A DNA stretch of 32,000 nucleotides from Haloferax volcanii DS2 (lineage in GTDB: Archaea > Halobacteriota > Halobacteria > Halobacteriales > Haloferacaceae), in contig NC_013966.1 of NCBI RefSeq assembly GCF_000025685.1, positions 1 to 32,000 of the forward strand, written 5' to 3'. The notes under the pieces were generated by a model. It had not been told where the DNA came from. It did no database searches and saw only the letters and a list, made by a program, of their open reading frames with translations. The stretch's first letter is position 1. Each line of letters starts with the position of its first letter. Shown piece after piece: positions 4,242 to 19,970 of the stretch. The translations under genes were made by a program, and so were the position numbers.

Positions 4242-4282
4242 AAATACTATAGAGCTAAGTGGGTGGTGTCCGCACGGGGAGT

Positions 4283-5641
4283 ATGGCCCGGAAGTACGAC
4301 CAGCAGTACGAGGACGCCCGAGAACGGATTCGGAACCACAGTACCGAGGGGACGCATCAGGTGCGGAAGGGAGTAGAGCGGACCCACCCCGGCTACGAGG
4401 ACGCGGAGGACGCGGAGCGCATCCTCACGATGGCTGACGCCTACGACGCGGACAACCTCGTAGTGGACTGCCCGGAGGGTCAGTCTACGAAGTCCGTCAC
4501 GACCCTCAAGAACTACCTCACCGGCCTCAACAAGATAGCCCCGCACGTCGCCCTCACGGATACGACCGCGACGGAACTGAACACGGTGATGCAGGGCTTC
4601 CTCGACGGGGACCTCCACAACGTGAAGGACTCCGGCCTCTCGAAAGGCTCCATCCGCGTCTACCAGAACGCCCTCCGGCAGTTCTACTACGTCCACGACG
4701 ACGTGGGCGTGGACCCGGAGGACATCACCCTGTTCAAGACGGACGACAAGGCCGTAGACCCGGCGGATATGCTGACCCGCGAGGAGATTCAGGCCATCCG
4801 GGACGCCGCGGACTGTATGCGGGACCGCGCCCTCTTCGACTTCCTCATCTACACGGGCCAGCGGAACACGGCCACGCGCTCCCTCCGCATCAAGGACCTC
4901 GACCTGGAGAACGACCGCTTCCGGCTCAACACGGACGCGGACGGCCTGAAGGGAGCGGAGACGAACGGGAAGTGGCGGGACCTCCTACTCTCGTCCGCGA
5001 CCGTCAAGCAGTACCTCAACACGGAACACCCGGCTCCGGACGACCCGGAGGCGTACGTGTTCACGTCCCGTCCGAAGTACGGCGGCCCCAAGCCCCGAGA
5101 GATGCTGGACGTAACGACGCTGGGCGGCATCGTGGGCCGTCTCGCGGACCGGGCGGCGGAGGACTACCCGGCCATCGCCAGCAAGCCGACGTACCCCCAC
5201 GCCCTCCGACACAACTTCGTGACCATCGCCCTCCGCCGCGGGATGGACGAGACGGCCATCAAGCACCAAATCGGCCACGCGCCGAACAGTTCCGTGATGG
5301 AGTCCACCTACGCCCACCTGAAGGACTCCGACCACATCCGGGCCGCTCGGGACGCCTTCGACCTGGAGACGGAGGACCACGAGAGCGAACTGACGCCGGA
5401 GGTGTGCCCGCGGTGCGGGGAGAGTCCGCCGGAGGACGCCCGCCTCTGCCCGTACTGTGGACTCGCCTTCACGCCGGACGCGGAGCAGGCCGTCGAGGAC
5501 GCGGAGGAAGCAGTCAACGACTCCTACCGGCAGACGCCTCCGGAGGACGCCGAGACGAAGGAGAAGATAGACCTCGTGTACGACCTGCTGGACGACCCGG
5601 ACGTGAAGGCGGCGATAGCCGAGCAGAAGGCCGAGGAGTAG
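4283..5641 (+). CDS. Tyrosine recombinase / phage-type integrase with a C-terminal zinc ribbon
   Basis: The catalytic region reads ...TGQRNTATRSLRIKDL ... HALRHNFVTIALRRG ... IGHAPNSSVMESTYAHL, giving the R..HxxR..H..Y pattern. The C-terminal extension contains CPRCG..x11..CPYCG. ATG 4283 follows a TATA-like aaaatactataga at 4241-4253. Confidence 0.9.
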   Translation: MARKYDQQYEDARERIRNHSTEGTHQVRKGVERTHPGYEDAEDAERILTMADAYDADNLVVDCPEGQSTKSVTTLKNYLTGLNKIAPHVALTDTTATELNTVMQGFLDGDLHNVKDSGLSKGSIRVYQNALRQFYYVHDDVGVDPEDITLFKTDDKAVDPADMLTREEIQAIRDAADCMRDRALFDFLIYTGQRNTATRSLRIKDLDLENDRFRLNTDADGLKGAETNGKWRDLLLSSATVKQYLNTEHPAPDDPEAYVFTSRPKYGGPKPREMLDVTTLGGIVGRLADRAAEDYPAIASKPTYPHALRHNFVTIALRRGMDETAIKHQIGHAPNSSVMESTYAHLKDSDHIRAARDAFDLETEDHESELTPEVCPRCGESPPEDARLCPYCGLAFTPDAEQAVEDAEEAVNDSYRQTPPEDAETKEKIDLVYDLLDDPDVKAAIAEQKAEE

Positions 5642-6483: not shown

Positions 6484-7916
6484 TTTAACGAAGAATCCAG
6501 TTGCTGTCTGTTGATTTGATATCGTCGCAACTACCTGATTGAGAAACCCGGTGGGAAGTATGACCTACAGCCCACCGGATTCGGTCATAGTTGACCGGAT
6601 TCAAAGAGCGTTTCCCTCTGATGAGTTGCGCGAGCGCGCTCGCGCAACGAATCTCGTCCAACGAGAGCGGAAATTCGACATCGTTGCGCTGTTCTACACA
6701 CTCTCGTTTGGCTTCGCTGCTGGCTCAGACCGCTCTCTCCAAGCATTTCTCGAACGCTACGTCGAGATGGCTGACTGTGACGAACTCTCCTACGCATCGT
6801 TCCACGACTGGTTCGAACCAGGATTCGTTGCACTCCTTCGAGAGATTCTCGATGACGCAATCGAGAATCTCGATACCGGACGAGAAGATTTGAACGGCCG
6901 TCTCGAACGCTTTCGAGACGTCCTCATTGCTGACGCAACCATCGTTTCGCTGTACCAGGACGCCGCTGATATCTACACAGCAACCGGCGACCATCAAGCC
7001 GAACTGAAACTTCACCTCACCGAATCTCTCTCGACTGGGCTCCCGACACGATTCCGGACAACCGATGGGACGACTCATGAACGGAGTCAGCTACCCACCG
7101 GCGAGTGGGTAGCTGACGCCCTCATCTTGCTCGATTTAGGCTTCTACGACTTCTGGTTGTTCGACCGAATCGACCAGAACGGCGGGTGGTTCGTCTCCCG
7201 GGTGAAGGACAACGCGAACTTCGAGATCGTCGAAGAACTGCGAACGTGGCGAGGCAACAGCATTCCGCTGGAAGGAGAGTCGCTGCAGGCCGTCCTTGAG
7301 GACCTGCAGCGACAGGAAATCGACGTACGCATCACGCTTTCATTCGAGCGCAAACGAGGGTCGGGCGCCAGCGCGACCCGGTCGTTCCGATTGGTCGGCC
7401 TGCGTAACAAGGAGAGCGAAGAGTACCATCTGTATCTGACGAATCTGGCGAGAGAAAGCTACAGCGCGCCCGATATCGCGCAGCTCTATCGGGCGCGCTG
7501 GGAGGTCGAACTGCTGTTCAAGGAGTTGAAGTCGCGGTTCGGCTTGGACGAGATCAAGACGACCGACGGCTACATCATCGAGGCGCTGATCATCATGGCC
7601 GCAATTTCGTTGATGATGAGTCGTGTAATCGTGGATGAGTTACGGTCGCTCGAGGCAAGACAGCGAGAGGGCGAAGCCGCCGCAGACGCCGACTCGTCGG
7701 CGTCGCGGCTCCCTCGGCGTCGCTGTTCGCTCGCCGTGGAACGCCACGGTCATCTAATCCAGTTGTATCTCATGATCGAGTTGGGCTACGAACTGCCGGA
7801 TTTGGACGAGCTGTTGCTGTGGGCGTCGCGTAATCCAAATCCACACAGGCAACGGTTACGTGAGCAGGTTGAACGAGGTGAGTTCGGCTTTGATCGCTAC
7901 TAAACTAGAACGCATG
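6472..7916 (+). mobile_element. IS4-family (ISH8-like) insertion sequence, about 1445 bp
   Basis: The terminal inverted repeats are catccgttctagttta (6472-6487) and taaactagaacgcatg (7901-7916), matching at 15 of 16 positions. The right repeat overlaps the transposase stop. No target-site duplication is visible. Confidence 0.65.
6560..7903 (+). CDS. IS4-family DDE transposase
   Basis: The DDE context reads LIADATIV, LLDLGFYD and the Y(2)R(3)E(6)K signature YRARWEVELLFKELK. ATG 6560 (MTYSPPD) is preferred over TTG 6539. Confidence 0.9.
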   Translation: MTYSPPDSVIVDRIQRAFPSDELRERARATNLVQRERKFDIVALFYTLSFGFAAGSDRSLQAFLERYVEMADCDELSYASFHDWFEPGFVALLREILDDAIENLDTGREDLNGRLERFRDVLIADATIVSLYQDAADIYTATGDHQAELKLHLTESLSTGLPTRFRTTDGTTHERSQLPTGEWVADALILLDLGFYDFWLFDRIDQNGGWFVSRVKDNANFEIVEELRTWRGNSIPLEGESLQAVLEDLQRQEIDVRITLSFERKRGSGASATRSFRLVGLRNKESEEYHLYLTNLARESYSAPDIAQLYRARWEVELLFKELKSRFGLDEIKTTDGYIIEALIIMAAISLMMSRVIVDELRSLEARQREGEAAADADSSASRLPRRRCSLAVERHGHLIQLYLMIELGYELPDLDELLLWASRNPNPHRQRLREQVERGEFGFDRY

Positions 7917-8114: not shown

Positions 8115-9450
8115 TTTTATAAAGAACTAATCTGATATGTGAAATACGAATGGAGGACGTGATTCGCACCGTCAAGGTCAAACTCGACGTACCCAACGAG
8201 CGGTGCGACGACCTCCATCAGACAAAAAATCAGTTCCTCCACTGTGCGAACACTACTGCAGAGTGGGCGTGGAGACACCCGGACGACTACTGCGTGACCT
8301 CGAAACAGAAAGCCGAGAAAGCCCTCTACGAGCAACTCCGCAACGAGACAGAGTTGACTGCAAACCTCGTTCAGAAAGGGATTCGGCGTGCTATCGAGGC
8401 CACGAAAAGCGGTGTCGCCCGACTCAAGAAAGGCGACAACACGAGCCAACCGCACTTCGACGCGTGGAGCGTCGTCTACGACAAGCGTTCAGCGACGTTC
8501 CACCGCGACCACGTTTCGCTCTCGACGGTGAACGGTCGCGTCAAGTGTGACTACGTGATTCCCGACAGCTCCGAGGGAACGCCGATTGGCGAGTACCTGT
8601 TGAATGAGGATTACGAGTTCCGAATGTCCACGTTGCAATACGACCGCGCCACAGAGTCGTTCTACCTCCACGCACGGATGCGCCGAACCACAGACGAACA
8701 AGAGCTGTCGATGACTCATTCTGACGCCAAGCACAGAACAGTCCTTGGTGTTGACCTGAACGTGGACGGCTCGCTCGCCGTGACGTCCACAGGCGCGTTC
8801 ATCGGGAACGCCGACGAGATGAATCATCGACGCCGAGAGTTCGAGAAGACGCGTGGGTCGATGCAACAAACTGGAACGCGGTCGGCACACCTGTCGATTC
8901 AGTCGATGAAAAACCGCGGACACCGCTGGATGCAGGACGAACTACACCGAGCGTCTAACCAGATTCTCGAAGAAGCCCGCGACCACGACTGTACTCATAT
9001 CTCATTCGAGAATTTGACCGACATTCGTAAGCGGATGGCTGGCACCAAGCGGTTCCACGCATGGGCGTTCCGACGCCTGTACCAGTACACCGAATACAAA
9101 GCCGAAATGTTCGGAATCGGGGTTGAACAGATAAGTCCTGCATACACGAGTCAGCGGTGTTCCAAGTGTGGATTTACGCATGAGGACAATCGGCGGTCGA
9201 AGCACCAGTTCGTGTGTCAGAAGTGTGAGTACGAACTGAACGCGGAGTATAACGCGAGCAAAAACATCGCTCGCAAACTCTTGAAACGTCTCCACTCGGG
9301 GCAGAAGTCTTCGAGTGGAGGCGCACCCTGTCAGTGTGCGCTACCGTCAGGGACGCTGAACCTGAACGGCGATTTCTGCGCCTCCGTCGATTCGACGGCA
9401 GAAGGGGAGTCCACTGACAAGCCCACGACTTCAGTCGTGGGTAACTGACA
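8115..9450 (+). mobile_element. IS200/IS605-family (IS1341-type, tnpA-less) element; boundaries approximate
   Basis: It has a TATA-like ttttataaag at 8115-8124, tnpB, and a terminal hairpin cccacgac-ttca-gtcgtggg at 9422-9441. Confidence 0.6.
8150..9448 (+). CDS. tnpB: TnpB-family RNA-guided endonuclease (IS605 OrfB)
   Basis: RuvC-I is VLGVDLNVDG and RuvC-II is ISFENLTDIR. The zinc finger is CSKCG...CQKCE. RuvC-III reads LNAEYNASKNIA, with Glu where Asp is usual. Confidence 0.9.
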   Translation: MEDVIRTVKVKLDVPNERCDDLHQTKNQFLHCANTTAEWAWRHPDDYCVTSKQKAEKALYEQLRNETELTANLVQKGIRRAIEATKSGVARLKKGDNTSQPHFDAWSVVYDKRSATFHRDHVSLSTVNGRVKCDYVIPDSSEGTPIGEYLLNEDYEFRMSTLQYDRATESFYLHARMRRTTDEQELSMTHSDAKHRTVLGVDLNVDGSLAVTSTGAFIGNADEMNHRRREFEKTRGSMQQTGTRSAHLSIQSMKNRGHRWMQDELHRASNQILEEARDHDCTHISFENLTDIRKRMAGTKRFHAWAFRRLYQYTEYKAEMFGIGVEQISPAYTSQRCSKCGFTHEDNRRSKHQFVCQKCEYELNAEYNASKNIARKLLKRLHSGQKSSSGGAPCQCALPSGTLNLNGDFCASVDSTAEGESTDKPTTSVVGN

Positions 9451-9687
9451 CACCCGATCTGCGTCGACTGCGCGATCCAGTCGAATCCCGATCCCGACGA
9501 GCGTGACCATTACGCCTGCGATAGCTGTGGTCTCGTTGTCGATGCGCTTGCAGCCCTCACACAGTTCCGTGTCGAACTCGGCCACCTGGAAGGTCCACTA
9601 CAGCTGTGTGCGAGATGTAGTCCCGATGGGCCCGCGACGTACTGGACTCGCGACCTAGACGACCATCTAATTAGTGAGTCGTCGTAG
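9451..9687 (+). pseudogene. Start-less Cys-rich ORF fragment abutting the tnpB right end
   Basis: The frame is open from 9445 with no ATG or GTG. It translates as HPICVDCAIQSNPDPDERDHYACDSCGLVVDAL...LQLCARCSPDGPATYWTRDLDDHLISESS*. CxxC pairs suggest a zinc ribbon. Confidence 0.35.
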
Positions 9688-9707
9688 TCGGTCGGAAAGT
9701 GGTGTAG

Positions 9708-9722
9708 ACCGCTCTGTTGAAA
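9708..9722 (+). repeat. Left copy of the 15-bp direct repeat GACCGCTCTGTTGAA
   Basis: It is identical to 14641-14655. The flanking ggt is also shared. Confidence 0.5.
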
Positions 9723-9937
9723 TCCTCAGCGCGGATAGTTTGTTGGGCCGTGCTGAACACATCGCGCGAATACAGCATCTGGGTCGATACCGTCTAAGGT
9801 GTGGGCTCGTCCTGAGTACGAGCTAGGTGCCGAAGGTTTTCTTCCAAGTAGGCTAGCACCATGAGAAGACATTACAGTGTGAATGCTAAGCACCCTCATT
9901 ACAGTTTTATTACAATTGCGGCATGATATCATACTGT

Positions 9938-10657
9938 ATGGCATCAGATCCATTTGGTCGCGCAGTCCGTGATTATTACCTTGGCGAGCTAGAGGAACCA
10001 CTTATCGACCGCGATGGTGATGAAACTCGCGAGCATTCTATCGAAGAATGGTATTTTGGAGAATACCAACGTGACGAGTGGTTTGAATCGTGGTTAGAGG
10101 GGCCGCTTCTAGATATGGGCGCTGGCGCAGGGCGTGATACTCTCTATTTTCAAGAACAGTTTGAGACAATCGCCATTGAGGTCAGTGAACACCTCGTAGA
10201 GACTATGCAAGACAGAGGCGTTGATGATGCCCGTCTTGCAGACATGTTTTCACTTCGAGAACATTTCGGACGTAACCGGTTTCAGTCAGCGTTTGCACTT
10301 GGGACACAGGCACAGCTCGCAGGGTCGATGCACGGTCTTAGACAGTTTCTTGATGACCTTGCATTTGTTACTACCGAAGATGCGACCGTTATACTTCATG
10401 GATATGCTCCTGAATTGGAAGTTACAAAGGACATTTTCGCCTACCGGGAGGATCCCACACCGGGGTTAGCATATCGGATTTTTCACTGTGAGTACGACGG
10501 TGAAATCGGGAGAACATTGCTCTTCCAGCTATTCAGCATAGACCGTCTTAGAGAGGCGACGGTAGGAACGTCGTGGGAAGTTTCCGAAGCCAGTTACGGC
10601 CATCCCGAGTCGGAGGGTGAATCAAATACCTGGTTGGCTGTACTCACGAAGGCTTAG
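9938..10657 (+). CDS. Class I SAM-dependent methyltransferase
   Basis: Motif I is LLDMGAGAGRD, and an acidic post-I residue is present (AIEVS). The region is AT-rich. TATA-like agttttatta at 9903-9912 favours ATG 9938 over ATG 9923. Confidence 0.65.
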   Translation: MASDPFGRAVRDYYLGELEEPLIDRDGDETREHSIEEWYFGEYQRDEWFESWLEGPLLDMGAGAGRDTLYFQEQFETIAIEVSEHLVETMQDRGVDDARLADMFSLREHFGRNRFQSAFALGTQAQLAGSMHGLRQFLDDLAFVTTEDATVILHGYAPELEVTKDIFAYREDPTPGLAYRIFHCEYDGEIGRTLLFQLFSIDRLREATVGTSWEVSEASYGHPESEGESNTWLAVLTKA

Positions 10658-10785: not shown

Positions 10786-11598
10786 TCAAATCGTCGTTGA
10801 GCGACGTTCTACACGCCCATCGGTTACCGCGACGGTGTCTTTCTCTTCCAAACGTCGCACAATCTCCTGTACGTCCGCTGCTGGCCAGTCGAGCTCCTGT
10901 TGCAGGTCAGCCACCGATTTCGGTTCGTCAAGCGCGTGTAGCACTTCGAGCTCTTCGTAGACGCGTTCGGTGATCTCCGCCACGGGGCCGTGCAACGGCG
11001 TCGTCACGTTGTGTTGTTCAGTGAGATCGGTCAACGCTTCGTTGACGTACGTCACGAACAGCTCTTGCTCCAAGAGTTCGACCTGCATCTCGAGTTCTGC
11101 TTCAACGACGTCGAACTCGAGGCCGGTCTGCATCAACGAGAACATATCCTCGATATCGTCCACCCGACCGGCAACCGCTTTGAACAGGAAGATGTCTTCT
11201 GGACTCACGAGTTCGACCACGAGACTCCCAAGATCGAGATAGCGTTCGCTCCGTTCACGGATGCCTGGAGACAGAATCAGCTTGCCGATCACCTGCTGGT
11301 TGAAAACGTCGATACGACACCCGTCATCGTTCTCGAAGATGCGCTGGGCACCGAGTTCTTCGTACTCTTCGTCCGGTTCCCGGACGATATCGTATCCTAA
11401 CTCAAGGAGCACCGCTTGTAGCTGACTCAGATCGTCGCCGGAGGAGACGATGAGGTCGATATCTTTGGTCGTCTCTTTGAGTCCGCGAAACGCCATCGAC
11501 CCACCGCCAATCAAGAAGACGGTGAGTGGGTTATCCAGCTGCTGGCCGATGCGCTCGAGCTCCGACCGGATGTATGAACTATCAAACCTCGCCCTCAT
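10786..11598 (-). CDS. Pol-beta-superfamily nucleotidyltransferase (AbiEii-like) with a C-terminal winged helix
   Basis: The motif GGGSMAFRGLKETTKDIDLIV fits the hG[GS]x9-13DhD pattern. A third acidic site is CRIDVF. The C-terminal part of about 70 aa (SVADLQQELDWPAADVQEIVRRLEEKDTVAV) looks like a wHTH. The ATG overlaps the upstream stop (ATGA). Confidence 0.6.
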   Translation of the reverse strand: MRARFDSSYIRSELERIGQQLDNPLTVFLIGGGSMAFRGLKETTKDIDLIVSSGDDLSQLQAVLLELGYDIVREPDEEYEELGAQRIFENDDGCRIDVFNQQVIGKLILSPGIRERSERYLDLGSLVVELVSPEDIFLFKAVAGRVDDIEDMFSLMQTGLEFDVVEAELEMQVELLEQELFVTYVNEALTDLTEQHNVTTPLHGPVAEITERVYEELEVLHALDEPKSVADLQQELDWPAADVQEIVRRLEEKDTVAVTDGRVERRSTTI

Positions 11599-12518
11599 AG
11601 CGTCACCTCGTACTCTTCAGCCAGTTCCTGGAAGTCCTCCCACTCGGGAAGTCGGGACGTCCGCTGGGCACCGCTGGTGTCGAGATACGTGTAGAGGTTG
11701 TCGACGACGTCGTCGACGCCGTACTTGGTGGCTTGGGCTCGGAGTTCGTCGCGGTCGATGTCGACGTGACTGAGCAGAAGCAGACAGTATGACTGCGTTC
11801 GTGCGCCCGAATCGACCACGAGCATGTGACAGCACAAGATCTCCGGCGAGAGCTCGCTCGTCGCCTCCGAATAGAGGTAGTACCGGCGGTCACGTGCCAA
11901 CAACGGGAGGCCGTACCGCTGGAACTGGTCTGGGCCTGTCGGGATGAAGTGTTCGTCAGCGATTTCTATCGTCGTCTGCACAAGGAACTCGCCCAGAGAC
12001 TCCCACAGAATCGTGTAGGTGTCGGTCTGTTCTTCGACAGTCTGACGGTGGACGTGATGGGCAAGCTCACGAGCGAATACGCTCAGCTGTTCGAAGCCGT
12101 CATTCAGTGCGTACGCGCCGTCATCAGTTTGGTAGACGATTCCGCGATGTTGAAGCGGGGCTAGCGCACGGTGGACGGTACTTCGGTGGACGTCGGCGCG
12201 GCGTGCGAGTTCGGTCGCGGTCCGTGGGGTGTCGAGGTAGTAGCACACACGGATAGCTGCCCCTGACAACAGCTCCGGCCAGTCGATGTGTGAATACTGT
12301 TGCGTGAGGTCCGTGAGTAACTCGAGGGCCTTTGCGTCCGACAGTCGAATCCGCTTTGTTTTCCCCTGTCGACGTGTCTCGACGAGGCCAGTCGTTTCGA
12401 GCCGCTCGACGAGTTCTGAGGTGTAGCTGAGACTCCGATCGAGATTCGTCGCGAGTTCAGAGACCGTCTGCTCACCGTGGAAGGCTGTAAGGGCGCGAAC
12501 CTCACCTTCTGTGAGCAT
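11595..12518 (-). CDS. Double winged-helix transcriptional regulator (AbiEi-like candidate antitoxin)
   Basis: The N-terminal wHTH is VSELATNLDRSLSYTSELVERLETTGLVETRRQGKTKRIRL. A second HTH is TATELARRADVHRSTVHRALAPLQHRGIV. The TATA-like atatataaat lies at 12541-12550. Confidence 0.6.
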   Translation of the reverse strand: MLTEGEVRALTAFHGEQTVSELATNLDRSLSYTSELVERLETTGLVETRRQGKTKRIRLSDAKALELLTDLTQQYSHIDWPELLSGAAIRVCYYLDTPRTATELARRADVHRSTVHRALAPLQHRGIVYQTDDGAYALNDGFEQLSVFARELAHHVHRQTVEEQTDTYTILWESLGEFLVQTTIEIADEHFIPTGPDQFQRYGLPLLARDRRYYLYSEATSELSPEILCCHMLVVDSGARTQSYCLLLLSHVDIDRDELRAQATKYGVDDVVDNLYTYLDTSGAQRTSRLPEWEDFQELAEEYEVTL

Positions 12519-12607
12519 CCTGTTGCATACTAGCGAACCAATATATAAATCGCTTCGGTATTTTGCAACGCAGAGCTAACTCTGTCGAGGACGTGAGCAT
12601 AACGGAT

Positions 12608-12795
12608 GAAAGCCCTCGGCCGCTCGACGTCCCGCGACCGCCGCTGCGCGCCTCGTGCCTGCGGTGCTTGCGGGGTCGGGGGACGGCCGAGACGCCCTCG
12701 CCCTTTCTGAGTCCGCCAGGATTGTTGTTGGTCCATCAAGCGACGTGGCCGGTTGGTCAGGTGTGTACGTACCGGCCCGCCCCGCTCGCCATTGC
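12608..12795 (+). repeat. GC-rich dispersed repeat, copy A
   Basis: By eye it is roughly 75-80 percent identical to 14805-14990, for example gctgcgcgcctcgtgYctgcKgtgcttgcg...tcgggg...cccttt. Confidence 0.55.
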
Positions 12796-14655: not shown

Positions 14656-14804
14656 GACTTCAAAATCGTCTTGTCTATGGACTGCGCTTCCTCAGGGCCA
14701 GGAGGTGCCGACGCGTCAGCGAGACCATATGAACAGTGGATAACGCTGTGTCAAACGTCTTCTGTAGGGACAAACAGCTGCTAGCGTCGGTTGCGGTCTC
14801 CTCG

Positions 14805-15016
14805 AAAGCCCCCGAACGCTCGCCGGCCGCGACTCGCTGCGCGCCTCGTGTCTGCTGTGCTTGCGTCGTCGGGGCACGTCGAGCGCCCGGCCCCTTTCAG
14901 TCCCGCCCGGGATCTATTGGTGAGCCAGCGATCTCCATCGGTTGACTGGTGTGGTACGAACGGCACGCACCGCTCGCCGCATTCCGCCCTCCGCGTCGCT
15001 CGCGACCGACCATTCG
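14805..15016 (+). repeat. GC-rich dispersed repeat, copy B (longest)
   Basis: The left part matches 12608-12795. The right 56 bp (14960-15015) are identical to 20350-20405. Confidence 0.6.
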
Positions 15017-15099
15017 TAGAGGGTTCGATGTAATCACCAAGTTGGCGACAGTTTTTCACAGCCGTGCTGACTTGATGGAAATTCTGCTATCCCATCGGA

Positions 15100-15296
15100 G
15101 CGTGAATCAATTATGGGACGCAAGAGACCGAGCTGTATTCCGTGCGCTAGAGCACGTGGTGCTGACTGGTCCGAGTGCGAAAGAAGCCGAGTTATGGGCG
15201 TCACAGCCCGGATGCCGCTCCTGGCGGCATCCGGGAAAGCCCGCATAGGTGAATTTCTGATTCACGCACCGCCGTCCTATCCCGGAGGAACGAACC
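15100..15296 (+). ncRNA. Candidate IS110 bridge-RNA-like non-coding region in the left end
   Basis: It has a perfect 11-bp stem, ccggatgccgc/gcggcatccgg (15208-15234). It also holds internal copies of the left terminus (gtgctgact, 15159-15167), the right terminus (cataggtgaat, 15244-15254) and the left target flank (tcacagcc, 15201-15208). Confidence 0.35.
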
Positions 15297-16295
15297 ATGT
15301 ACCTCGGAATCGACCTACACAAACGATACGCACAGGTGGCAGTAATGGACCTCGAGGGCGAGATTGTCGAAGAGGTTCGCGTCAAAAACGCGAACCTCGA
15401 CGACCTCGCTCAGCGATACGCTGGCTCTCGTGCAGTAATCGAGGCGACCAGCAATTACTACCACGTCTACGATACTCTCGCGGAGTACTTGGACGTAACC
15501 GTCGCTCATCCAGGCAAACTGACGCTCATCGCTCGGTCAGACAAGAAAACCGACCGCGTCGACGCGAAAGAACTCGCGCGGCTGCTCCGGCTGAACTCTG
15601 TTCCGCAGAGTTACGTTCCTACCGACGAGATTCGGGAAGCCCGCGCACTCGTGCGCGGGCGACAGACCTTGGTCGAAGATCGGACCAAGTTCGCCAACAA
15701 AATCCACGGCTTGCTCGCCGATAACGGCATCACTCAGACGGTAAAACCGCTGAGTGTCGAGGGACGAGAGTTCCTCCGGGAACTCTCGCTCCCGTCTCCG
15801 TGGGACAGTCTCTTGGACTCGTATCTCGACGTGGTCGAGACGCTAACCGAGCAGATGACTCAGTTGGAAGCGGCGATTGAGGAGCGCGCTGGGTCTCTGA
15901 AGGAGACCCAGCTGCTGATGACCATCCCCGGTGTCAGTTACTACTCCGCGTTGCTGGTCTACGCTGAACTGGGTGAGATCGATCGGTTCGACGGCCACAA
16001 AGAGGTCGTGAGTTACATGGGACTGAACCCGACGATCCGCGAGTCCGGTGACTCGCGGATCGAGGGTGGTATCTCGAAACGCGGCTCAGGACGAGTTCGC
16101 TGGATCTTGGTTCAGAGTGCGTACTCAGCCGTGTACACGTGTAAAGACGCGTATCTAAGCACGTTCTTCCACCGGTTGAATCGTCGAATGAACTCGAAAA
16201 AAGCGATCGTCGCGACGGCACGAAAACTGCTCGTCTCGATGTACTACATGCTCGTCCGAGAGGAAGTCTACGATCCACCGGGGGTGAGCGCCTGA
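15297..16295 (+). CDS. IS110-family transposase (DEDD RuvC-like N-domain plus C-terminal Tnp domain)
   Basis: It contains YLGIDLHK, IEATSNYY, KTDRVDA, IPGVSYYSA and ISKRGSGRVR. Confidence 0.93.
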   Translation: MYLGIDLHKRYAQVAVMDLEGEIVEEVRVKNANLDDLAQRYAGSRAVIEATSNYYHVYDTLAEYLDVTVAHPGKLTLIARSDKKTDRVDAKELARLLRLNSVPQSYVPTDEIREARALVRGRQTLVEDRTKFANKIHGLLADNGITQTVKPLSVEGREFLRELSLPSPWDSLLDSYLDVVETLTEQMTQLEAAIEERAGSLKETQLLMTIPGVSYYSALLVYAELGEIDRFDGHKEVVSYMGLNPTIRESGDSRIEGGISKRGSGRVRWILVQSAYSAVYTCKDAYLSTFFHRLNRRMNSKKAIVATARKLLVSMYYMLVREEVYDPPGVSA

Positions 16296-16305
16296 AGAAG
16301 GGAAT

Positions 16306-16334
16306 CTGAGGAACGCCGGACCGGCGTTCCTCAG
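16306..16334 (+). terminator. Perfect 14-bp stem-loop just after the IS110 transposase stop
   Basis: The sequence is ctgaggaacgccgg-a-ccggcgttcctcag. It is conserved in copy 2, with a compensated loop region. Confidence 0.4.
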
Positions 16335-16537
16335 TGGCCGGATGAGGCCAGCGTAAGCGACAGCTCTAGCAAGACTCGTTCCGACCGCCTACCGGTTGTG
16401 GAGGTCTCAATCACCACGTTGTCTAGTGGTTTCTCGTCGTTGAGGGACTAGAGAAGCTAGATCGTGCGAACAACTTTATCGCCAGCGGTGGTTAGTTGAG
16501 CCAGCAGAATTTCCATAGGTGAATACAGCGCGCAAAT

Positions 16538-16759
16538 TCACCGAATAAACGACGTGCCTACCACGATGAAAATCCCCACAATAGAGAGAACGATTGAGAC
16601 CATCCCTACCAGTCGTTCAATCTGGAGTTGACCACGGAGAGACGGGTGAGCCGCCATTGCTGGGCCACTCGGCATCGGGCCGCTAGTCAAGATAACCCCG
16701 ATTACACCCGCCAAGACGAGTGTCCAGCCAACATTTCGCCCCATTTTCAGGGAATCCAT
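16538..16759 (-). CDS. Small two-TM membrane protein trapped between the two IS110 copies
   Basis: The 73-aa ORF has two hydrophobic helices (WTLVLAGVIGVILTS and MVSIVLSIVGIFIVVGT). It is the only ORF in the 336-bp inter-IS segment. Confidence 0.4.
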   Translation of the reverse strand: MDSLKMGRNVGWTLVLAGVIGVILTSGPMPSGPAMAAHPSLRGQLQIERLVGMVSIVLSIVGIFIVVGTSFIR

Positions 16760-16861
16760 GTTAGCATCTCGTGACAGGCAATTATGGTCTTTTTGTGTGT
16801 AGCTCCTCGGTTGTGAATATACCCCGACAGACCAGTACGAATTTGCTGAATGTAGCCTCTA

Positions 16862-18325
16862 TATTCACCTATGGAAATTCTGCTGGCTCAACTAACCACC
16901 GCTAGCGATAAAGTTGTTCGCACGATTCCGTGTCTCTCGTTCTTCAACGGTGAAAAACCACTGGGCAACGTGGTGATTGAGACCTCCACAACCGATAGGC
17001 GGTCGGTACGAGTTCCGCGATAGCTGTCGCTCACGCTGGTTCCATCCGGCCACTGAGGAACGCCGGACTGGCGTTCCTCAGATTCCCTTCCTCAGGCGCT
17101 CACCCCCGGTGGATCGTAGACTTCCTCCCGGACGAGCATGTAGTACATCGAGACGAGCAGTTTTCGCGCCGTCGCAACGATTGCTTTTTTCGGGTTCATC
17201 CGACGGTTCAACCGGTGGAAGAACCGGCTCAGATACTCGTCTTTACACGTGTACACTGCTGAGTATGCACTCTGAACCAAAATCCACCGCACCCGTCCTG
17301 AACCACGTTTCGAGATACCACCCTCGATCCGCGAGTCGCCGGACTCGCGGATCGTCGGGTTCAGCCCCATGTAACTCACGACCTCCTTGTGGCTGTCGAA
17401 CCGATCAACTTCTCCAAGTTCTGCGTAGATCAGCAACGCGGAGTAGTAACTGACTCCAGGAATCGTCATGAGCAGCTGGGTCTCCTTCAGAGACCCAGCG
17501 CGCTCCTCAATCGCAGCTTCCAGCTGTGTCATCTGCTCGGTCAGGGTCTCAACCACGTCAAGGTACGACTCCAACAACGCGTCCCACGGGGACGGGAGCG
17601 AGAGTTCCCGGAGGAACTCTCGTCCCTTCACGCTCAGTGGCTTCACCTCGCGGGTGATACCGTTGTCAGCGAGCAAGCCATGGATCTTGTTGGCGAACTT
17701 GGTGCGATCTTCGACCAATGTCTGTCGCCCGCGCACGAGTGCGCGGGCTTGCCTGATCTCGTCGGTGGGAACGTAACTCTGCGGAACGGAGTTGAGTCGA
17801 AGCAACCGCGCGAGTTCTTTGGCGTCGACGCGGTCGGTTTTCTTGTCGGAGTGAGCGATGAGCGTCAGTTTACCTGGATGAGCGACGGTTACGTCCAAGT
17901 ACTCCGCGAGCGTATCGTAGACGTGGTAGTAATTGCTGGTCGCCTCGATGACCGCACGAGAGCCAGCGTAGCGTCGAGCGAGATCGTCGAGGTTCGCGTT
18001 TTTGACGCGAACCTCTTCGACAATCTGGCCTTCGCTGTCGATTACTGCTACCTGTGCGTACCGTTTGTGTAAGTCGATTCCGAGGTACATTGCTTGTTCC
18101 TCCGGGATAGGACGGCGGTGCGTGAATCAGAACTTCACCTATGCGGGCTTTCCCGGATGCCGCCAGGAGCGGCATCCGGGCTGTGACGCCCATAACTCGG
18201 CTTCTTTCGCACTCGGACCAGTCAGCACCACGTGCTCTGGGGCACGGAATACAGCTCGGTCTCTTGCGTCCCATGCTTGATTCACGCTCCGCAGGGATAG
18301 CAGAATTTCCATCAAGTCAGCACGA
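16862..18325 (-). mobile_element. IS110-family insertion sequence, copy 2 (1464 bp, inverted relative to copy 1)
   Basis: It has the same termini as copy 1. The right ends of the two copies face each other. Confidence 0.8.
17092..18090 (-). CDS. IS110-family transposase, copy 2
   Basis: It is 332 aa and differs from copy 1 at 17 positions by my count. Confidence 0.93.
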   Translation of the reverse strand: MYLGIDLHKRYAQVAVIDSEGQIVEEVRVKNANLDDLARRYAGSRAVIEATSNYYHVYDTLAEYLDVTVAHPGKLTLIAHSDKKTDRVDAKELARLLRLNSVPQSYVPTDEIRQARALVRGRQTLVEDRTKFANKIHGLLADNGITREVKPLSVKGREFLRELSLPSPWDALLESYLDVVETLTEQMTQLEAAIEERAGSLKETQLLMTIPGVSYYSALLIYAELGEVDRFDSHKEVVSYMGLNPTIRESGDSRIEGGISKRGSGRVRWILVQSAYSAVYTCKDEYLSRFFHRLNRRMNPKKAIVATARKLLVSMYYMLVREEVYDPPGVSA

Positions 18326-18671: not shown

Positions 18672-18755
18672 TGTGAATTCCGTTCGACTCGCCGTTGTTT
18701 TTTCGCGCCCGCGATGGGCGGAGGCGCGCGGAAGTGCAGACGTGCCTCGACAACC

Positions 18756-19970
18756 ATGCCAGACGAACGAATCCGAACAGTCGTTGCGTCGCTCGTCGAG
18801 CCGACGTCGCACAAAGAGCAGAAGCTTCAGAACCTGCAGTCAACCTATCGGGAAGCCCTCTGTGAAGCGTTCGACGCCAACGCAACGACGATGACGGCGG
18901 TCAACGATATTGTAACGCCCTACGACCTCCCGTACCAAGCGAAGGACGCGTTGAAGCGCCATGTTCCAGGCCTCCTCAAGAGCGGGTCAGCAGAACTCAG
19001 CGAGACCCAACCGATTCGGTTTACCAACCGGGCGGCGGTATTCGATCATTCCACCGACCGGACGCACGCATTCTGCTGGGAAGTTCCCCAACCTGGCCGT
19101 GGCACCAACTTCTGGATTCCGCTCGCAATCAATCCAGACCAACGCAAGTGGTGGCTCCAGTTGCTTGATGGCGAGGCTACTGCTGGACAGCTACAGCTGA
19201 TCACCCGGCCGCGACAGGCCCGTTGGGAACTGCACGTTCCGCTCAAACTCCCAACAACGACATCCGAAGTCGATTGCGAGACCTGCACGCCGGTCGGGTT
19301 CGACGTCGGCGAAGCGATTCTCTTGACCGGCTGTGCGCTCGTGAACGGGCGGCCAGTCGATCCGTTGCTCGTGGATGGTGGCAGAGCCCGACACCTCAAT
19401 CAGACATTGCAGACGACACTCCAACGGTTGCAGGAACGTGATGCCGCAGAGTGGCGAATTGACGAGCAGGCGGCGTACTTCCGGAACGCACTTCGGGACG
19501 AGATCGAGACGGCGACGCGAAACGCTGTGGAGTATGCCGCCGGGTTCGATCAGCCGGTACTCGTCCTCGAACAGCTGACGTCGATCCAAGAGGACCTCGA
19601 CTTCGGCCCACACATGAATCGGCGACTCCATGCGTGGGCTTTCGACCAGCTGCAAACGCGACTCGCAGACAAGGCTGCCGACGCGGAGATTCCGGTTCAG
19701 TACGTCGATCCGGCGTACACGTCCCAGATCTGCCATGCGTGTGGGGTGATTGGAACCCGTCCCAAGCAAGCGGAGTTTCGCTGTACGAACGACGACTGCT
19801 GGGTGTCAGTCTATCAGGCCGATATCAACGCGGCGGCCAACATTGCAGGTCGCCTTGATCCGTGGGGTGAGAGCTGTCCCTGGAACCCGGCCAGCGATGA
19901 CACGCTACGGAACGGGCGCACCCGTGACAGTGCCACAGGACCTCGTGAGCAGAGCCCGTCACAGCGATGA
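18756..19970 (+). CDS. tnpB: TnpB-family RNA-guided endonuclease (IS605 OrfB), second type
   Basis: It contains VGFDVGEAILL, the WAF motif (HAWAFDQLQ), the zinc finger CHACG...CTNDDC, and an intact RuvC-III YQADINAAANIA. ATG 18756 (MPDERIRTV) is preferred over 18714. Confidence 0.88.
   Translation: MPDERIRTVVASLVEPTSHKEQKLQNLQSTYREALCEAFDANATTMTAVNDIVTPYDLPYQAKDALKRHVPGLLKSGSAELSETQPIRFTNRAAVFDHSTDRTHAFCWEVPQPGRGTNFWIPLAINPDQRKWWLQLLDGEATAGQLQLITRPRQARWELHVPLKLPTTTSEVDCETCTPVGFDVGEAILLTGCALVNGRPVDPLLVDGGRARHLNQTLQTTLQRLQERDAAEWRIDEQAAYFRNALRDEIETATRNAVEYAAGFDQPVLVLEQLTSIQEDLDFGPHMNRRLHAWAFDQLQTRLADKAADAEIPVQYVDPAYTSQICHACGVIGTRPKQAEFRCTNDDCWVSVYQADINAAANIAGRLDPWGESCPWNPASDDTLRNGRTRDSATGPREQSPSQR

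Follow-up and report, generated by a model that had tools for sequence, protein, structure and literature searches.

Two overlapping genes on the minus strand of Haloferax volcanii DS2 contig NC_013966.1 (assembly GCF_000025685.1) form, together with their palindromic promoter, a mobile cassette that we interpret, on balance and with limited confidence, as a MenAT/AbiE-like toxin–antitoxin (TA) module for addiction or defence, with a new domain architecture and relatives across the archaea. The DNA analysed, called the window below, comprises positions 1 to 32,000 of the forward strand of this contig. The upstream gene (gene 1) encodes a winged-helix regulator and the downstream gene (gene 2) a predicted nucleotidyltransferase (NTase). 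An initial annotation, made from the sequence alone, had read the pair as a type IV AbiEi/AbiEii abortive-infection module; its statements about the sequence itself were all borne out, while its assignment to AbiE required revision. The module is like AbiE and MenAT in the layout of its operon, the logic of its autoregulation, and the fold and active site of its NTase. It differs from them in that its proteins belong to other families, the partner has two winged helix-turn-helix (wHTH) domains and an unrelated C-terminal domain, the NTase carries a wHTH of its own, and single-chain versions occur.

Organization and linkage of the gene pair

11595..12518, minus strand: gene 1, putative antitoxin, 307 aa (open reading frame, Pfam domains, homologues, AlphaFold2 model)
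10786..11598, minus strand: gene 2, putative toxin/effector, 270 aa (open reading frame, Pfam, homologues, AlphaFold2, Foldseek)
11595..11598, minus strand: ATGA stop/start overlap, translational coupling (from sequence)
10786-12569, minus strand: whole cassette including the operator

Both open reading frames (ORFs) are present as annotated, with the stop codon of gene 1 and the start codon of gene 2 overlapping by ATGA; the junction reads ...acgctATGAgggcg, also given as ...GTGACGCTATGAGGGCG... The pair is not a chance arrangement, since each protein has more than 300 homologues: near-equal numbers were found in a word-indexed database, 319 for the NTase and 321 for gene 1, with identities of up to 97% across genera (Haloferax, Haloprofundus, Halorussus, Halorarum and Natrinema). 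An exhaustive profile-free scan returned 765 cluster representatives (50% identity, E<=1e-3). When one genome per species was considered (185,579 species genomes), a relative was found to be encoded at 235 places. Relatives occur in Halobacteria, Nanohaloarchaeota, Methanohalarchaeum, Thermoplasmata, Methanosarcinales/ANME-2, Baldrarchaeota and Bathyarchaeia.

At 80 of 81 loci the NTase gene is directly preceded, on its own strand, by a gene 1 homologue, the single exception being cut by a contig end, and in 68 of 78 pairs the two genes share exactly 4 bp. At four Methanosarcinales/ANME-2 loci (L071, L073, L076 and L077) the overlap is 8 bp. Both genes are fused into a single ORF at two loci (L065 and L066), and fusions of 544-565 aa make up 13 of the top 150 cluster representatives, the fused chain running wHTH-wHTH-HVO_2833_C-DUF6036-wHTH according to Pfam. 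Strict linkage and recurrent fusion thus indicate, as far as sequence can, that the gene 1 and gene 2 proteins work as a physical complex.

A predicted nucleotidyltransferase resembling MenT1

11455..11508, minus strand: catalytic motif G31-G32-G33-S34 ... K41 ... T44-K45-D46-I47-D48, invariant in 29 members
10789..10998, minus strand: long helix and third wHTH (wHTH3) of the NTase, residues about 201-270 (AlphaFold2, Foldseek)

The gene 2 protein contains the Pol-beta NTase signature ascribed to it, FLIGGGS-x11-DID and CRIDVF. It matches DUF6036 (PF19502) over residues 12-167 with 26.5 bits against a gathering cut-off of 23.6 and also passes, marginally, the Pfam threshold for DUF2204; its database homologues are likewise annotated DUF6036. 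Its AlphaFold2 (AF2) model has a predicted local distance difference test score (pLDDT) of 89.8 and a predicted template-modelling score (pTM) of 0.85. In Foldseek searches the closest fold was MenT1, both alone and in the MenAT1 complex (8AN5_B/8AN4; E 6.5e-6 to 1e-4, probability 1.00, template-modelling (TM) score 0.57-0.60 on the target, 185-223 columns), followed by TM1012 of Thermotoga maritima (PDB 2EWR/2FCL/4HX0; E 7e-5, TM score 0.66 on the target), a 156-aa stand-alone putative NTase without a wHTH. MenT1, which its depositors labelled an AbiEii/AbiGii-family toxin, is also the top PDB match of the NTase family sequence profile, though only at E 0.022.

Conservation of the NTase was assessed in 29 non-redundant sequences (<80% identity) ranging from Halobacteria to Bathyarchaeia. 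Residues G31-G33, K41, T44, K45, D46, D48, D97, K140, R145, D148 and D151 are invariant, and because the catalytic residues are retained throughout this set the NTase is predicted to be active and under selection. Pol-beta motifs I and II, hG[GS]-x(9-15)-DhD, with a third acidic residue, are represented by I30-G-G-G-S34, D46-I-D48 and D97. In the profile alignment, each residue of T44-K-D46-I-D48 is paired with its counterpart in MenT1 T39-R-D41-V-D43, and Thr44, at the phosphoacceptor position two residues before the first catalytic Asp, is found in 29/29 sequences. MenT1 T39 and AbiEii T65 are the sites of antitoxin-induced auto-phosphorylation, by which the toxin is switched off (PMC11375011; bioRxiv 10.64898/2026.01.19.700257), and AbiEii T65/D67/D69 have a spacing equal to that of T44/D46/D48 (PMC3985639; PMC11375011; bioRxiv 10.64898/2026.01.19.700257). 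Besides motifs I/II of the above form, AbiEii has motif III, KLxAaxxR, and motif IV, +DxxD (PMC3985639). The invariant stretches K140-A-V-A143-G-R145 and D148-I-E-D151 resemble these in K140..A143.R145 and D148xxD151, but the spacing is different: motif III here reads K-x2-A-x-R, with a K-to-R spacing of 5 rather than 7, and the residue preceding D148 is not basic.

The NTase also ends, as annotated, in a wHTH of its own, a feature of neither AbiEii nor MenT. Residues about 203-270 are modelled with pLDDT >90 and superimpose at ~1 Å on IclR/OhrR wHTHs in Foldseek; the model has helices at 229-236 and 240-252 and strands within 256-265, and Pfam gives weak TrmB/MarR matches. Conservation within the protein is lowest in this domain (0.42), and its recognition-helix position is acidic and variable (AADVQEIVRRLEEKD). 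We considered wHTH3 as a third reader of the operator described below and rejected it, as the helix is acidic, variable and uncorrelated with operator sequence; it is probably not an operator reader. The C-terminal wHTH is not recognizable in three Halorubrum/Halopenitus NTases (L069, L070 and L074) or in representatives of ~220 aa (e.g. P0286 and P0315). Not every member of the family thus has the third wHTH, some tails being divergent or shortened.

Domain structure of the gene 1 protein

12333..12518, minus strand: wHTH1, ArsR/SmtB-like, residues ~1-62 (Pfam TrmB/MarR/HVO_A0114; PDB profile)
12099..12281, minus strand: wHTH2, MarR/IclR-like, residues ~80-140 (Pfam MarR_2/HTH_IclR)
11598..12089, minus strand: long linker helix and C-terminal domain, residues ~144-307 (HVO_2833_C covers 189-305)

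The two winged-helix regions attributed to gene 1 are present at residues about 3-62 and 83-146, where Pfam MarR_2/TrmB/HTH_IclR match twice, and the AF2 model (pLDDT 92.2, pTM 0.85) contains H-H-H-beta-beta units at residues ~4-59 and ~87-138. PDB profile matches of wHTH1 include SqrR and HlyU, and its recognition helix is SLSYTSELVERLE; that of wHTH2 is VHRSTVHRALAPL, with H111, R112, S113, T114 and R117 invariant. The description of gene 1 as two winged-helix modules had, however, overlooked a third domain that accounts for about half of the protein, Pfam HVO_2833_C (PF24271; residues 189-305, E 6e-46, 156.1 bits against a gathering cut-off of 34). It is the best-conserved part of gene 1 and was matched in 17 of 17 diverse members, in whose C-terminal domains it is the sole Pfam family found. 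In the predicted fold, a long helix leads into an alpha/beta unit with four strands, after which come five helices.

Searches for structural relatives of the C-terminal domain were negative. A PDB profile search with the isolated domain gave no relative even at E<=10, and hhalign found no profile similarity to the NTase family (probability 0.1). Foldseek searches with the full model were dominated by wHTH proteins in the PDB (best E 1.4e-3, TM score <=0.25) and returned only wHTH proteins from BFVD. AbiEi (6Y8Q) and Rv2827c (1ZEL) were absent from both the PDB profile matches of gene 1 and the Foldseek top 50. We propose that this is an NTase-binding, neutralizing domain, gene 1 being predicted to act as an autorepressor as well as the NTase-binding partner.

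The polarity of the pair could in principle be the reverse, as in the HEPN/MNT (HepT-MntA) modules of type VII, in which the NTase is the antitoxin (PMC7641770): the NTase would then nucleotidylylate, and so silence, a toxic C-terminal domain of gene 1, whose invariant polar residues T194 and H231, plus E177 and Y244, could form an active site. HEPN/MNT modules likewise comprise two genes, one encoding a minimal Pol-beta NTase, and neutralize by covalent modification, as is proposed here; there, however, the partner is a HEPN RNase. In gene 1 no HEPN Rx4-6H motif was found, with no Arg 5-7 residues before the invariant His231, and there was no match to a HEPN or nuclease family; a HEPN-type partner was rejected on these grounds. 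A DNA-binding autorepressor is, moreover, normally the antitoxin. Foldseek also places the NTase nearest to the MenT1 toxin, not MntA, and the decayed copies described below keep gene 1 and lose the NTase, which would be lethal were gene 1 the toxin. We regard reversed polarity as very doubtful.

A conserved promoter palindrome that covaries with the recognition helices

12522..12569, minus strand: bipartite palindrome over the promoter, predicted operator, 48 bp, 24-nt arms, 75% complementary (repeat search)
12564-12569 and 12522-12527, minus strand: outer boxes GTTGCA and TGCAAC
12554-12557 and 12534-12537, minus strand: inner boxes CGAA and TTCG
12542-12549, minus strand: TATA box TTTATATA, palindrome centre

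On the minus strand the predicted operator reads GTTGCA-N6-CGAA-N4-TTTATATA-N4-TTCG-N6-TGCAAC. Its centre coincides with that of the TATA box, 27.5 nt ahead of the gene 1 ATG. In haloarchaeal promoters in general such a distance from TATA box to ATG means a leaderless transcript, so the operon mRNA is expected to be leaderless or nearly so. A repressor bound at the palindrome would exclude TBP/TFB.

In 16 close loci the ~55 nt leading up to the gene 1 ATG are conserved, also at those whose DNA further upstream is unrelated. The same operator layout and distance recur across all clades, at ~70 of 78 loci, while the sequences of the boxes differ and covary: outer boxes include TGTAAC../..GTTACA, GTCTCA../..TGAGAC, GTTTCA../..TGAAAC and GTTCCA../..GGAAC, and inner boxes CGAA, ACAAC, GCAAG and TTGAAAA. 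Complementarity was measured in 40 non-redundant promoters, with one arm slid by 1-3 nt or permuted 500 times as controls. Outer-box positions are complementary in 82-97% of the sequences, with 3-4 pair types, and inner-box positions in 72-88%; overall arm complementarity was 0.69, compared with 0.23-0.32 in the slid controls and <=0.44 in the permutations. This pattern is the one predicted for compensatory change in a protein-binding palindrome.

The type of wHTH2 recognition helix follows the outer box. VHRSTVHR is paired with GTTGCA, NYRNTVNR with TGTAAC, (A/V)SRATVYR with GTCTCA and K(A/S)T(F/L)WR with GTTTCA or GTTCCA. Two loci (L033 and L036) differ in their outer boxes and wHTH2 helices but have the inner box ACAAC in common and a similar wHTH1 helix, SH(I/V)SR. 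Outer and inner boxes are 11 bp apart centre to centre and hence on one face of the DNA. Since the helix types track the boxes and the boxes have this spacing, each gene 1 monomer would place wHTH2, the probable reader of the outer box, and wHTH1, the probable reader of the inner box, on the two boxes of one arm. The promoters of the four Methanosarcinales/ANME-2 loci with 8-bp gene overlaps lack an inverted repeat and have TCCAA-containing boxes in direct orientation; this clade may use a different binding geometry.

The AbiEi-bound operator of Streptococcus agalactiae abiE is TGTTGCTTTTA-N27-TAAAAGCAACA (PMC3985639). Its outer half-sites, TGTTGC/GCAACA, and its span of ~49-50 bp are shared with the main haloarchaeal clade (TGTTGCA...TGCAACA), and gene 1's sole PADLOC AbiEi match, a sub-threshold one, lies in wHTH2, whose recognition helix covaries with the outer box. 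The likeness of the half-sites could be coincidence or distant homology.

Mobility and decay of the cassette

DNA homology between the cassette and its closest relatives spans, in the most divergent flanks, only ~10770 (just past the NTase stop codon) to 12569, about 1.8 kb that correspond to the operator and the two genes. The surrounding island as a whole was found on no plasmid; the cassette alone is held in common. Protein identity of 94-97% is seen across different genera and between families and does not follow taxonomy. The NTase occurs at 130 places on 101 haloarchaeal plasmid records; a tblastn search of 50,697 phage and archaeal-virus records gave no match to it, and PHROGs yielded generic wHTH matches only. 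Several genomes carry two copies of the cassette. The neighbourhoods of the copies are mutually unrelated and include a Fic/restriction/IS200-605/VapBC island, metal-resistance and PIN genes, a molybdoenzyme operon, a conjugation-like region, thermosome and glutamine synthetase genes, fibrillarin, Nop and ribosomal genes, and a BREX-5 locus. Such a mobility pattern is typical of the behaviour of TA cassettes.

The initial annotation had named, as the case that would speak against it, a conserved housekeeping regulator pair found in all haloarchaea. The pair is indeed widespread in Halobacteria and lies on some main chromosomes, but its distribution is patchy (the 235 places in 185,579 species genomes noted above), it is frequent on plasmids and in several copies in some genomes, its near-identity between families cuts across taxonomy, its neighbourhood is different in every genome, and pseudogenized copies exist. 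A housekeeping role was rejected because the ~1.8-kb cassette is mobile, plasmid-borne, multi-copy and found in unrelated neighbourhoods, and we consider it hardly tenable.

A frameshifted NTase beside an intact gene 1 was found at two loci (L013 and L048) and on Halobacterium salinarum plasmid pKBTZ03_355. In the plasmid case (L090; NZ_CP146626.1 313143-319948) the frameshifted NTase is unannotated and the regulator gene intact; this cassette adjoins genes for an AAA ATPase and the BREX-5 methyltransferase pglX. The sole damaged gene 1 beside an intact NTase (L072) retains wHTH2 and the C-terminal domain. These decayed copies fit the MenAT/AbiE-like model.

Relation to AbiE, MenAT and other modules

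The assignment to AbiEi/AbiEii held in part. Gene order, coupling, mobile and patchy distribution, operator, fold and catalytic residues fit it, whereas family profiles do not match. Hidden Markov model searches gave no PF08843 match in the NTase at E<=1, no NCBIfam family and only two wHTH-type PADLOC matches, none of them AbiEii. For gene 1 no AbiEi family was among the Pfam matches listed, and the PADLOC AbiEi match remained sub-threshold (E 0.011), with no significant stretch and confined to residues 102-154, within wHTH2. The NTase would thus work in a MenT/AbiEii-like manner yet, by the tests run, is not a DUF1814 member. [quoted passage not shown]

Among characterized systems, MenAT1 of Mycobacterium tuberculosis (Rv0078B-Rv0078A) likewise has a T-x-D-x-D loop with Thr at the phosphoacceptor position, a catalytic Lys, a DxxD and the partner gene upstream, and its toxin, MenT1, is the best PDB match of the NTase core both in structure and in sequence profile. 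MenA1, however, has 68 aa and no DNA-binding domain, and MenAT1 lacks transcriptional autoregulation (PMC10435456; PMC11375011); here the 307-aa partner combines a large C-terminal domain with two wHTHs, and the operon has a conserved operator. MenT1 is without a wHTH, and the NTase here without a DUF1814 profile match.

AbiE of S. agalactiae and Lactococcus lactis and MenAT3/MenAT4 are, like the present cassette, bicistronic, with an antitoxin consisting of a wHTH and a C-terminal domain upstream of a Pol-beta NTase toxin; they too reside on mobile elements and have a Thr two residues before the first catalytic Asp. AbiE represses itself via inverted repeats over ~49-50 bp of promoter with outer TGTTGC/GCAACA, and the palindrome here is alike. 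The AbiE-type layout is reproduced, with two cistrons, the antitoxin candidate first, and promoter inverted repeats that are conserved and covary. In contrast, AbiEi combines a single wHTH with a COG5340 C-terminal domain where gene 1 has two wHTHs and PF24271, with no detectable similarity, and AbiEii is a DUF1814/COG2253 protein without a wHTH where the NTase here is DUF6036 plus wHTH. An archaeal case, PygAT of Pyrococcus yayanosii, is cited in PMC11375011 as a DUF1814-superfamily TA system with an NTase toxin and an upstream regulator-type antitoxin. Its lineage is COG2253/DUF1814, and its example shows that NTase TA systems of such kind operate in archaea.

That the cassette is a regular AbiE member, with an AbiEi antitoxin and an AbiEii toxin mediating abortive infection, appears improbable. 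The gene order and overlap, the outer TGTTGC/GCAACA and ~50-bp span of the S. agalactiae abiE operator (PMC3985639), the NTase fold and motifs, and reports of DUF1814 systems in archaea (PMC3985639; PMC11375011) would all agree with it. Set against these are the profile results given above, a partner whose two wHTHs are joined to a C-terminal domain of another family, the additional wHTH of the NTase, the altered spacing of motifs III and IV, and the finding of no homologue in any sequenced virus searched, with no defence phenotype known.

Proposed mechanism and competing explanations

For the MenAT/AbiE-like module that we favour, we infer operator binding by the domains named, neutralization, auto-phosphorylation, toxicity, target and antiviral role as follows. 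Two copies of gene 1 protein would bind the 48-bp palindrome over the TATA box and transcription start, with wHTH2 seated at either outer hexamer and wHTH1 at the inner box a helical turn away, and would keep the leaderless operon repressed. The C-terminal domain of gene 1 would at the same time bind the NTase and keep it inactive, possibly, as with MenA/AbiEi, by forcing the invariant Thr44 into the active site and so making the NTase phosphorylate itself. If the partner were lost or displaced through cassette loss, stress or infection, the free NTase would add nucleotides to a cellular target and cause growth arrest. By analogy with MenT1/3/4, which extend tRNA 3' ends (PMC10435456; PMC7450476), the target may be the 3' CCA end of tRNAs.

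Several points count against this interpretation. The NTase falls outside the AbiEii/DUF1814 profile and gene 1 outside the AbiEi profiles, and neither Foldseek nor PDB profile nor Pfam searches linked the C-terminal fold of gene 1 to that of AbiEi. The wHTH of the NTase has no role in the model. Several copies lie among housekeeping genes without mobile or defence neighbours, and the cases of decay are too few for statistics. A literature search (HVO_2833, DUF6036, DUF2204) found no experiments on any family member; a search on AbiE in haloarchaea found nothing useful. Toxin and antitoxin in one chain, finally, are unusual for TA systems, and a single holoenzyme fits the fusions equally well.

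Such a holoenzyme would be non-toxic and DNA-bound, its NTase modifying a ligand, protein or nucleic acid in a signal-responsive transcription switch that involves neither growth arrest nor addiction. We hold this to be unlikely but deserving of serious consideration. Recurrent single-chain fusions of the whole architecture, three wHTHs per heterodimer, pTM values of 0.85 in both models, which suggest rigid multi-domain bodies, copies embedded among housekeeping genes and the lack of a PADLOC defence-family match for the NTase all speak for it. However, apart from the promoter of the cassette itself no conserved DNA target was found, and no conserved neighbour gene that might form a regulon was seen in the neighbourhoods examined. 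The cassette also moves alone and is near-identical across genera, its NTase has a bona fide toxin, MenT1, as closest structural relative, and decay has struck the NTase alone beside an intact partner.

It is also conceivable, though rather improbable, that the cassette is an archaeal antiviral sensor-effector and not a plain addiction module. Either the fast-evolving acidic wHTH of the NTase or the C-terminal domain of gene 1 would then recognize a protein or nucleic acid of the invader, upon which the NTase would be released from its DNA-bound partner. If so, the single-chain versions would be fused toxin–antitoxin immune proteins with a CapRel-like logic, and the tandem winged helices and two-box operator would constitute a readable archaeal wHTH-DNA recognition code.

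Should the MenAT/AbiE-like interpretation be correct, the MenT/AbiEii class of translation-blocking NTase toxins would extend to a large unrecognized archaeal family, whose present annotations go no further than 'DUF6036' and 'HTH domain protein'. HVO_2833_C is named after the member from H. volcanii, a genetically tractable model in which toxicity, Thr44 auto-phosphorylation and tRNA targeting are directly testable. The bipartite operator and its covarying helices offer a system in which to study tandem winged helices at an archaeal TATA box, and the cassette is a marker of mobile or accessory DNA in haloarchaeal genomes.

The surrounding island

As the initial annotation had recognized, the cassette lies in an AT-rich island bounded by insertion sequences (IS): within the window, GC content is 0.51-0.58 across ~5.5-18.5 kb compared with 0.60-0.67 outside, and it is flanked by a tyrosine integrase and an IS4 transposase as well as by pairs of TnpB genes and IS110 copies. 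No tRNA genes, attachment sites or Rfam families were found in the window. The tyrosine integrase, which has a C-terminal zinc ribbon, and the IS4-type DDE transposase (4259-5641 and 6539-7903) lie at the low-GC boundary, and TnpB/Cas12f-like genes at 8150-9448 and 18714-19970 enclose the island. A stretch of ~320 nt behind the first TnpB gene (9448-9770) is conserved at three other loci (L002, L008 and L010) and is probably an IS end or a guide-RNA region. The two IS110-family elements (15063-16546 and 16841-18324) are each 1,484 nt long, 90% identical and in inverted orientation 294 nt apart; their transposases, of 332 aa, are 95% identical.

A GC-rich, internally palindromic dispersed repeat (TGAAAGCCCTCGGCCGCTCGACG...) is present at 12607-12790 and 14797-15070. 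Further copies were found at other haloarchaeal loci (L003 4979-5160, L002 1-76, L009 13131-13206, L006/L010 ~6775-6992 and L082 8672-8909), some adjoining the cassette and others kilobases off. The repeat matches no Rfam family and looks like a miniature inverted-repeat transposable element. On the plus strand, 9923-10657 encodes a 244-aa ORF with the S-adenosylmethionine (SAM)-methyltransferase motif LDMGAGAGRD and no Pfam match at 1e-3; on a plasmid of Natrinema caseinilyticum the cassette has as its neighbour a homologue annotated 'class I SAM-dependent methyltransferase'.

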